Source: a virus (lineage: Duplodnaviria > Caudoviricetes). Taken from it: DNA of 61,180 nucleotides. The notes beneath the pieces were generated by a model. It saw only the letters and a program-made list of their open reading frames with translations, made no database searches and was not told the DNA's origin. The position numbers and the translations under genes are program-made. Positions 33,492 through 33,608 of this stretch are shown here, piece by piece. The stretch lies in IMG/VR virus record IMGVR_UViG_3300043414_000203, positions 1 to 61,180 of that record. One strand, given 5' to 3'. Numbering within the stretch: the stretch's first letter is position 1; the number at the start of each line of letters is the position of its first letter.

Positions 33492-33608
33492 GCGGGAAAG
33501 CCTGCCAACACTCTCCTTAAGTTGTGATCTCCTTCTTGGTGGGCGAGTACCTCTCGCTTGAGTCTTAAGGGAAGACTCTTTTACCCCGCTTCGGTGGGGT
33601 ATTTTTTT
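33492..33608 (+). ncRNA. Candidate anti-Shine-Dalgarno small RNA (~115 nt)
   Basis: Promoter, 5' hairpin, two CTCCT motifs, two further hairpins, terminator; no credible ORF. Confidence 0.6.
33582..33608 (+). terminator. Rho-independent terminator
   Basis: TACCCCGC-TTCG-GTGGGGTA followed by T7. Confidence 0.85.

Follow-up and report, generated by a model that had tools for sequence, protein, structure and literature searches.

The window, i.e., the whole stretch of DNA analysed here, covers 61,180 bp and represents a complete viral record, which has direct terminal repeats. Its nearest isolated relatives share about 57% identity in the large terminase (uncultured and Pelagibacter-type phages), and the 24 sequencing runs listed as holding it are freshwater or unspecified metagenomes, with no RNA run among them. 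We deal here with a small RNA (sRNA) unit, which sits in a 341-bp gap separating two divergent genes, and with an array of small genes to whose common leader this sRNA is complementary (Table 1). When positions 33331-33671 were used as a query, blastn found no similar DNA in isolated phages. No tRNA or tmRNA gene was found in the window or in the loci of 10 relatives, and searches against Pfam and PHROGs assigned no function to those array proteins that were submitted, nor to the region 35887-38145. The first genes of both divergent operons are headed by a second class of conserved leader, with a G-rich Shine-Dalgarno sequence (SD) and a short conserved box 5' of it (33331-33352 on the minus strand and 35865-35886 on the plus strand), which recurs at the equivalent genes in relatives.

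Table 1. Features of the sRNA locus, of its candidate targets and of the small-gene array, with positions in the window.
Feature	Position	Strand	Remarks
PD-(D/E)XK exonuclease gene	32458-33330	-	PHROG 2139, E 1e-52; heads recombination operon
Leader of exonuclease gene, candidate target of seed 1	33331-33344	-	Rank 6 of 98 by accessibility-corrected score; hybrid -21.6 kcal/mol
Palindromic operator-like element	33425-33444		Upstream of sRNA promoter; in 9 of 9 aligned relatives
Predicted sRNA promoter, extended -10 type	33459-33487	+	-35-like hexamer 33459-33464, 17-nt spacer, TG 33479-33480, -10 hexamer 33482-33487
Small RNA, about 115 nt	33494-33608	+	5' end inferred from promoter; 3' end at terminator U tract
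Stem P1	33500-33544	+	33500-33508 with 33536-33544; for each of the 9 pairs, one or more sequences with two-sided changes; 96.6% of cells paired
Seed 1	33509-33517	+	Complement of 46009-46017 (-) and 36314-36322 (+)
Seed 2	33524-33533	+	Complement of nine array leaders; 10 nt with leader of 45916
Hairpin 2	33560-33578	+	4 of 4 modelled pairs with compensatory changes; stem kept, sequence differs widely
Intrinsic terminator	33582-33608	+ only	8-bp stem 33582-33601, 4-nt loop, T run to 33608; U-rich linker before
Metallophosphoesterase gene	33672-34628	+
Start region of 56-aa gene at 36306, candidate target	36295-36322	+	Two AGGAGA-type motifs
Array of about 20 small genes, shared 16-nt leader	41794-46017	-	First mini-ORF starts at 46004
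Exact 9-mer sites in array	41799, 41987, 42483, 42674, 43518, 43912, 44466, 44609, 45919	-
Near-consensus sigma-70 promoter of array	46051-46079	-	Hexamers conserved in G001, surroundings differ

The preliminary description had presented the locus as a promoter-to-terminator unit, and both ends of such a unit were recovered. Relatives were gathered by protein-anchored searches with both flanking genes, and the intergenic unit was alignable in nine. Its downstream end is a plus-strand intrinsic terminator, with compensatory changes in three pairs. At the upstream end, all nine close homologues keep the TG-n -10 element (apart from a single change in one of them), even as their spacers diverge. 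Three of the nine aligned homologues have lost the -35-like hexamer by deletion, which fits an extended -10 promoter. This promoter was placed from conservation; a sigma-70 scan listed none for the unit, since it scores 8/12 against the consensus. There is no conserved ORF on either strand. Indeed, on the plus strand the ATG at 33490 is absent in eight of nine homologues, and on the minus strand the frame of the ORF, read by eye, differs between the window and its relative G001. We also discarded the idea that the minus strand is the functional one and that its two SD-like motifs form a leader, because its frame is not conserved, no start codon follows these motifs at a suitable distance and the G-U pairs described below point to the plus strand. 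The sRNA overlaps no predicted transcript. It has a promoter and an intrinsic terminator of its own and no conserved ORF, as an independent trans-acting sRNA should, its transcription being predicted.

The folding of this RNA is conserved. A covariance model built from nine sequences found remoter copies in viral contigs and, together with a gapped pattern scan, added ten metagenome contigs. There are 23 matches to this model, 20 of them distinct, and their scores amount to 127 bits in the window and to 34-143 bits in the relatives. In the alignment of the 23 matches, which was itself fitted to the model, 97.0% of the pair cells hold standard pairs, compared with 82.6% after shuffling and 41-50% after sliding of the partners. 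In addition, 16 of the 24 pairs change on both sides (7.7 in shuffles), and none of 500 shuffles reached any of the observed pairing measures. An independent treatment of nine sequences by MAFFT and RNAalifold gave nine compensatory pairs. For the window sRNA, the minimum free energy is -41.6 kcal/mol (z -2.41). From 5' to 3', the molecule consists of a basal helix (P0), an invariant internal loop, the stem P1, which closes a loop of about 27 nt, hairpin 2, a U-rich linker and the terminator. The large loop holds two CU-rich seeds, and an invariant third helix, formed between the three initial bases of each seed, leaves the CU-rich core of seed 1 in a 12-nt apical loop and the core of seed 2 single-stranded. 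We take the U-rich linker and terminator tail to resemble the Hfq-binding end of enterobacterial sRNAs; likewise, the internal loop between P0 and P1 presumably resembles a bulged-G/loop-E protein-binding motif. The many G-U pairs show that the folded strand is the plus strand. They also bear on the idea that no RNA gene exists and that the conservation reflects DNA-level elements of a divergent promoter region, such as operators or a terminator stopping antisense read-through. The location between divergent operons and the presence of a palindromic operator suit that idea, but compensatory changes occur in three helices, the G-U pairs would read as A-C on the opposite strand and would have no meaning in duplex DNA, and there is no plus-strand gene upstream that needs this terminator. 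We thus hold a purely DNA-level explanation to be very improbable, and, on comparative grounds, 33494-33608 is in all likelihood a genuine RNA gene.

No known family accounts for it. At the gathering score, Rfam gave nothing in the window or in the loci of 10 relatives. Below threshold (33300-33700, E up to 10) there were 12 matches, of which the best, to TarB, reached 26.4 bits for a gathering score of 80 and was driven by the terminator. A 15-nt seed pattern met 57 stretches in viral contigs, where the only true homologue was in the record of G001 and the others were chance occurrences. A three-block pattern met eight viral stretches, all in contigs found before, and 17 metagenome stretches, of which the model confirmed ten and not the remaining seven. 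In one genome per prokaryotic species, the same pattern met three bacterial stretches, none of which was confirmed by the model, and there is thus no sign of a host-encoded copy. A second covariance model, R2, applied to 100 further loci, returned weak matches only and misplaced the homologue of G015, which was found by eye beside the exonuclease gene of that phage. In G009 (L242 9023-9158, i.e., G009 49023-49158), the same slot has the same palindrome, a similar -10 and the same downstream motif; it holds a strongly diverged structured RNA, whose single fused CU-rich tract is partly sequestered in the predicted fold. The sRNA represents a new phage RNA family with strong comparative support, absent from Rfam and apparently restricted to a clade of freshwater phages of roughly 60 kb.

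The palindromic element upstream of the sRNA promoter had been described as an SOS-like operator. The LexA consensus is made of two 4-base arms spaced by 8, and this consensus is fitted in only three of nine relatives: seven of the eight arm positions agree in the window and all eight in two relatives. In six of the nine, the arms are different and still palindromic, i.e., they co-vary, which suggests sites for phage-specific repressors rather than an SOS box. The absence of a T run on either side indicates that the palindrome is not a terminator. In the window it overlaps neither the -10 nor the -35 of either promoter. A deletion in three relatives puts it at the -35 position of the sRNA promoter and, judging from these alignments, it may well regulate the sRNA. 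The proposal that sRNA, array and SOS operator form one system found little or no support.

We also considered the sequence downstream of the terminator. Between 35213 and 35880, upstream of the replication operon (helicase, Toprim protein), lie about 650 nt without a long ORF and without an Rfam match. This stretch matches, with 75-87% identity, the one located directly 3' of the sRNA terminator in G002, G004-G007 and G009; an origin and a long non-coding RNA are two candidate functions for it. An 11-nt repeat occurs three times at 34947-35013, with iteron-like spacing of 20 and 30 nt, just before a 73-aa ORF at 34977. In the segment that follows the terminator (33611-33671), a perfect -10-like hexamer at 33628-33633 is conserved with its surroundings in G001, and the other relatives have a different conserved motif in its place; the difference coincides with the presence of the metallophosphoesterase insertion. 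This arrangement raises the question of whether the unit forms the 5' portion of some longer transcript and works in cis, be it by attenuation, by processive antitermination or as an RNA associated with replication. In G002 and G004-G009, indeed, the terminator is directly followed by the conserved motif, the ORF-free conserved sequence of about 650 nt and the replication genes, and the iteron-like repeats of the window point the same way. However, the strength and conservation of the terminator speak against such a role, as does the failure to find a conserved antiterminator pairing as an alternative to it; moreover, in the window and G001 three ORFs and a separate -10-like element come between the sRNA and the 650-nt stretch. 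An attenuator or riboswitch leader in particular was set aside, as no riboswitch or leader family of Rfam matched in the window or in the loci of 10 relatives, and the downstream content differs between window and G001 on one side and the other relatives on the other. A cis-acting role is, to our mind, unlikely.

The complementarity of the two seeds to ribosome-binding sites of the same phage, which had been put forward in the preliminary description, proved exact. Positions 33525-33533 on the plus strand are the reverse complement of a 9-mer of which the window has ten copies, all on its minus strand. One of these is the complement of the seed itself; the other nine, at 41799-45927, precede by 4-7 nt the start codons of small array ORFs (42-99 aa). 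The 9-mer occurs nowhere else in the 61 kb and at no non-array start among the 98 start sites considered. The extension of seed 2 to 10 nt matches the leader of the gene at 45916 and no other. Seed 1 complements the leader of the first, 24-codon ORF of the array, as had been claimed, and a site just inside the gene at 36306. The late-gene ribosome-binding sites were indeed without the extension. Among the 98 start sites, the 9-mer is found at nine and a one-base variant at four, and each of 12 other extensions at a single site. If two anti-SD cores are taken as given, the probability that a random flank of 4 nt matches the dominant leader extension is about 0.0095; a match of one flank to the dominant leader and of the other to any start-site extension has a probability of about 0.0006, and so does the occurrence of the seed in a shuffled loop, all three figures being post hoc and drawn from a single genome.

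The seeds are the most conserved unpaired parts of the sRNA, and the linker between them varies in length and sequence. The predicted probability of the core being unpaired is 0.51 for seed 1 and 0.78 for seed 2 in the window, and at least one core reaches an unpaired probability of at least 0.5 in 17 of the 20 distinct homologues, across which seed 1 is nearly invariant and less variable than the flank of seed 2. What is generally looked for in a trans-acting sRNA, a conserved accessible seed complementary to initiation regions, is present here, the accessibility being that of the predicted fold. The seed flanks drift while the cores are fixed, so that the strictly conserved part is the anti-SD core. 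Moreover, pairing of the flanks in the third helix (3-4 nt) could alone explain why they are conserved, and their conservation above that of the linker can be credited either to target pairing or to this helix. Such a pattern calls to mind a decoy or sponge mimicking the 16S rRNA tail, which would titrate SD-bearing mRNAs globally or bind a protein or nuclease recognising that tail. The strict conservation of the CU-rich cores only, across all subfamilies, speaks for a decoy, seed 1 presumably resembles the 16S rRNA tail plus one extra base, and the assumed likeness of the invariant internal loop to a protein-binding motif would fit as well. On the other hand, conservation of the flanks far exceeds that of the linker, no protein stands out as a candidate partner, and if SDs were titrated globally, late genes of the phage itself would be affected too. 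We therefore give a decoy little credence.

The array leader is far more widespread than the sRNA. The exact 16-mer was found in 116 viral stretches, often in runs of 2-8 per stretch (e.g., L284, L293, L347, L352), against eight stretches for the sRNA pattern, and it marks a broad clade of freshwater phages of roughly 60 kb with small-gene arrays. Among ten near-complete leader-bearing records examined, six have a homologue of the sRNA (G012, G014, G017, G020 and G021 by the model, G015 by eye), and none was detected in the other four (G013, G016, G018, G019). In three of these four, G013, G019 and G016 (100, 99 and 91% complete, with 5, 6 and 12 leader ribosome-binding sites, respectively), a search with the filters off gave best scores of only 13.6, 8.7 and 15.1 bits, the two best being coding ends plus terminators, and no other anti-leader seed-like site was found in them. 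G009 (95% complete) has nine leaders together with the strongly diverged RNA mentioned above. The sRNA had been invoked to explain why the leader is conserved beyond the SD; this explanation did not hold, as the sRNA covers 9 of the 16 leader nucleotides and leader arrays exist without it. Also, at the minus-strand starts 44101 and 44281 the 8-nt leader spacer is kept while the SD core is degenerate, so that something besides SD pairing must maintain the spacer. GATC, which occurs within the leader, is not unusual genome-wide (212 observed, 234 expected). The gene content of the array is mosaic among relatives (41700-46020 compared with G001, G003, G004, G005, G007 and G009), and of 49 internal homology-block ends, 39 are at most 15 nt away from a leader, where 7.0 were expected, a figure to be read with the caveat that gene-wise selection alone would likewise put breaks at gene boundaries. 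The conservation of the leader is better explained by a role in translation initiation and as a recombination junction for gene cassettes. As a mark of cassette junctions in many related phages, the leader gives a handle on the way hyperplastic early regions are built, and the idea that an sRNA times the array is separable from this wider phenomenon. The first gene behind the early promoter (45930-46004, minus strand) is a strongly hydrophobic mini-ORF of 24 codons; it is conserved with its leader in G001, G003, G004 and G005.

Whether the array leaders are the preferred targets was addressed by ranking the 98 start sites, of which 20 are in the array. With an accessibility-corrected duplex score, 11 of the 15 top sites belong to the array, and the non-array ones are 2128, 33330, 36306 and 32150. 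With cofold ensemble energies, the array provides six of the top 15, and its median (-10.3 kcal/mol) is lower than that of the rest (-7.6 kcal/mol; one-sided Mann-Whitney p 0.002), a comparison in which the array leaders, as copies of one sequence, amount to a single match rather than to independent events; the best four sites by this measure are all outside the array (36306, 30626, 36473 and 47106). A naive duplex scan of the whole genome placed none of the nine leaders among its best 45 sites and the region of the first mini-ORF fifth; it is uninformative, because long imperfect duplexes outrank 9-bp seeds. Hence, of the claim that the array leaders are preferred, the enrichment stands in two rankings, and their being uniquely best does not. 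Indeed, the cores would pair with any strong GGAG-type SD, so that the specificity for the array is weak.

Outside the array, two sites stand out among the predictions. Seed 1 can form 12 consecutive pairs, including two G-U (read by eye), with the leader of the exonuclease gene. The start of the gene at 36306 is first of 98 by cofold (-21.4) and seventh by the accessibility-corrected score; its motif at 36314, which is conserved in relatives, also codes for protein. Moreover, the complement of seed 1 recurs at the starts of several conserved genes in G001, G002, G004, G005, G007, G008, G010 and G011. Base pairing could thus have been selected for a few conserved genes, or for host mRNAs, the match to the array being a by-product of a shared SD flavour. 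The high ranks of 36306 and 33330, the recurrence of the complement in these eight relatives, the lower variability of seed 1 than of the seed 2 flank, and the fact that in most relatives the sRNA adjoins the operon holding the 36306 homologue all speak for it. As the motif at 36314 is protein-constrained, its conservation says little, and the exact match to the array leader is kept in seven genomes. All in all, we see selection for such targets as a possibility to be kept in mind, although a rather unlikely one.

Comparison of seed and leader across relatives gave a divided answer. That the two vary independently, which had been named in advance as evidence against an sRNA acting on the array, is true in part: the flank of the seed differs in G012, G020, G009, G017 and G003 while the leader is unchanged, but the exact 9-nt match is kept in G000, G001, G004, G005, G007, G021 and G014, and in two of these seven the sRNA is otherwise quite diverged (94 and 32 bits). 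The leader is invariant wherever it is present, with no changed leader found in any relative, so that true covariation cannot be seen. Read by eye, A-to-G changes of the seed in G003 (12 leaders) and in G006/L268 would keep G-U pairing, an inserted base or other flank changes in G020, G009, G017 and G015 leave seven pairs, and only the 5-nt SD core can pair in G012 (5 leaders). In G003, seed 1 is changed and its matching leader is not. A different leader seemed present in G010 and was rejected, since the apparent motifs are glycine-rich coding repeats; G010 and G011 (70% and 67% complete) hold no array, and this comparison covers the other genomes.

Taken together, these results lead us to favor an sRNA that represses, in trans, the translation of phage messages with AGGAGA-type ribosome-binding sites, a reading to which we give roughly one chance in two. 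From a weak extended -10 promoter, an sRNA of about 115 nt would be made and ended at the strong intrinsic terminator. Its covarying 9-bp stem would present the loop of about 27 nt with the two CU-rich anti-SD cores, which would prevent 30S subunits from binding by pairing with AGGAGA-type ribosome-binding sites on mRNAs of the phage itself. The most numerous sites, and among the best predicted ones, would be the leaders of the promoter-proximal early array (9-10 bp), the first mini-ORF, the leader of the exonuclease operon and the gene at 36306 being further candidates. As it accumulates, the sRNA would damp the translation of its target messages, much as T4 RegA and RegB do with proteins. 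By these predictions, the array is the largest AGGAGA-type target class in this phage. A bolder version, in which the twin loops mimic the 3' tail of 16S rRNA and provide an off switch for the early array independent of the cassettes it contains, seems doubtful to us. If it were true, any small gene recombining behind the shared leader would fall under the same timed translational shut-off, and the hyperplastic array of the sRNA-carrying clades would come with built-in "plug-and-play" control. The locus also suggests a simple general idea, namely that a single RNA, aimed at a ribosome-binding leader which unrelated early genes have in common, may allow a virus to set the timing of the entire block.

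Small antisense RNAs of phages have been known in several forms. In lambda, oop is such an RNA, and its promoter is under LexA control. In P22, the small RNA sar pairs with a phage message to block its expression (PMC12197685). Both sar and oop are cis-encoded and fully complementary to one target, whereas the sRNA described here overlaps no predicted transcript. The c4 RNA of P1 and P7 pairs through two short exposed sequences; it is processed from the transcript of its own target and controls one operon. It is a phage-encoded antisense RNA which acts in trans, pairs around the ribosome-binding site and blocks translation (PMC12197685). Like c4, our sRNA is phage-encoded and, in its predicted fold, has two exposed seeds complementary to ribosome-binding sites. 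Unlike c4, it has its own promoter and terminator and many potential targets with a common leader, and is encoded on the strand opposite to the array, at a distance of 8-12 kb; the Rfam C4 model gave no match in the window, at E up to 10 in 33300-33700, or in the loci of 10 relatives.

The C-rich sRNAs RsaE/RoxS of Firmicutes have unpaired pyrimidine-rich motifs, often more than one, which bind the SDs of several mRNAs and prevent formation of the initiation complex (PMC2790875). The phage sRNA likewise has more than one conserved unpaired pyrimidine-rich motif. RsaE/RoxS are chromosomal, Hfq-independent and metabolic, whereas the sRNA here is phage-borne with phage genes as predicted targets; the structures are unrelated (no Rfam match), and its motifs are CU-rich with a CUCC core, not UCCC. 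In T4, many early messages are shut down at their initiation regions, by RegA, a competitor of ribosomes on about 30 mRNAs, and by RegB, through which early mRNAs are inactivated (PMC3014915); these are proteins, whereas the sRNA would act by base pairing, and the analogy is functional only. For the leader itself, the best analogue is given by the PeSL cassettes of T4-type hyperplastic regions, which flank small non-essential early genes and mediate modular shuffling (PMC2839356). In both cases short conserved modules accompany small early genes, PeSL being a promoter plus stem-loop and the array module a 16-nt ribosome-binding leader inside one operon.

A search of full texts outside subscription journals and without supplementary files turned up no account of a system of this kind. 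To our knowledge, a role is known for only few of the small RNAs found in lytic or uncultured phages. The listing in a 2025 review (PMC12197685) names sar, c4, DicF, IsrK, AgvB, AsxR, VpdS, PreS and a few antisense RNAs, and this listing contains no sRNA targeting a phage gene family via a shared leader. By analogy, the sRNA would thus work like c4, like the RsaE-type sRNAs and, in a functional sense, like RegA and RegB, while being a member of none of these groups.
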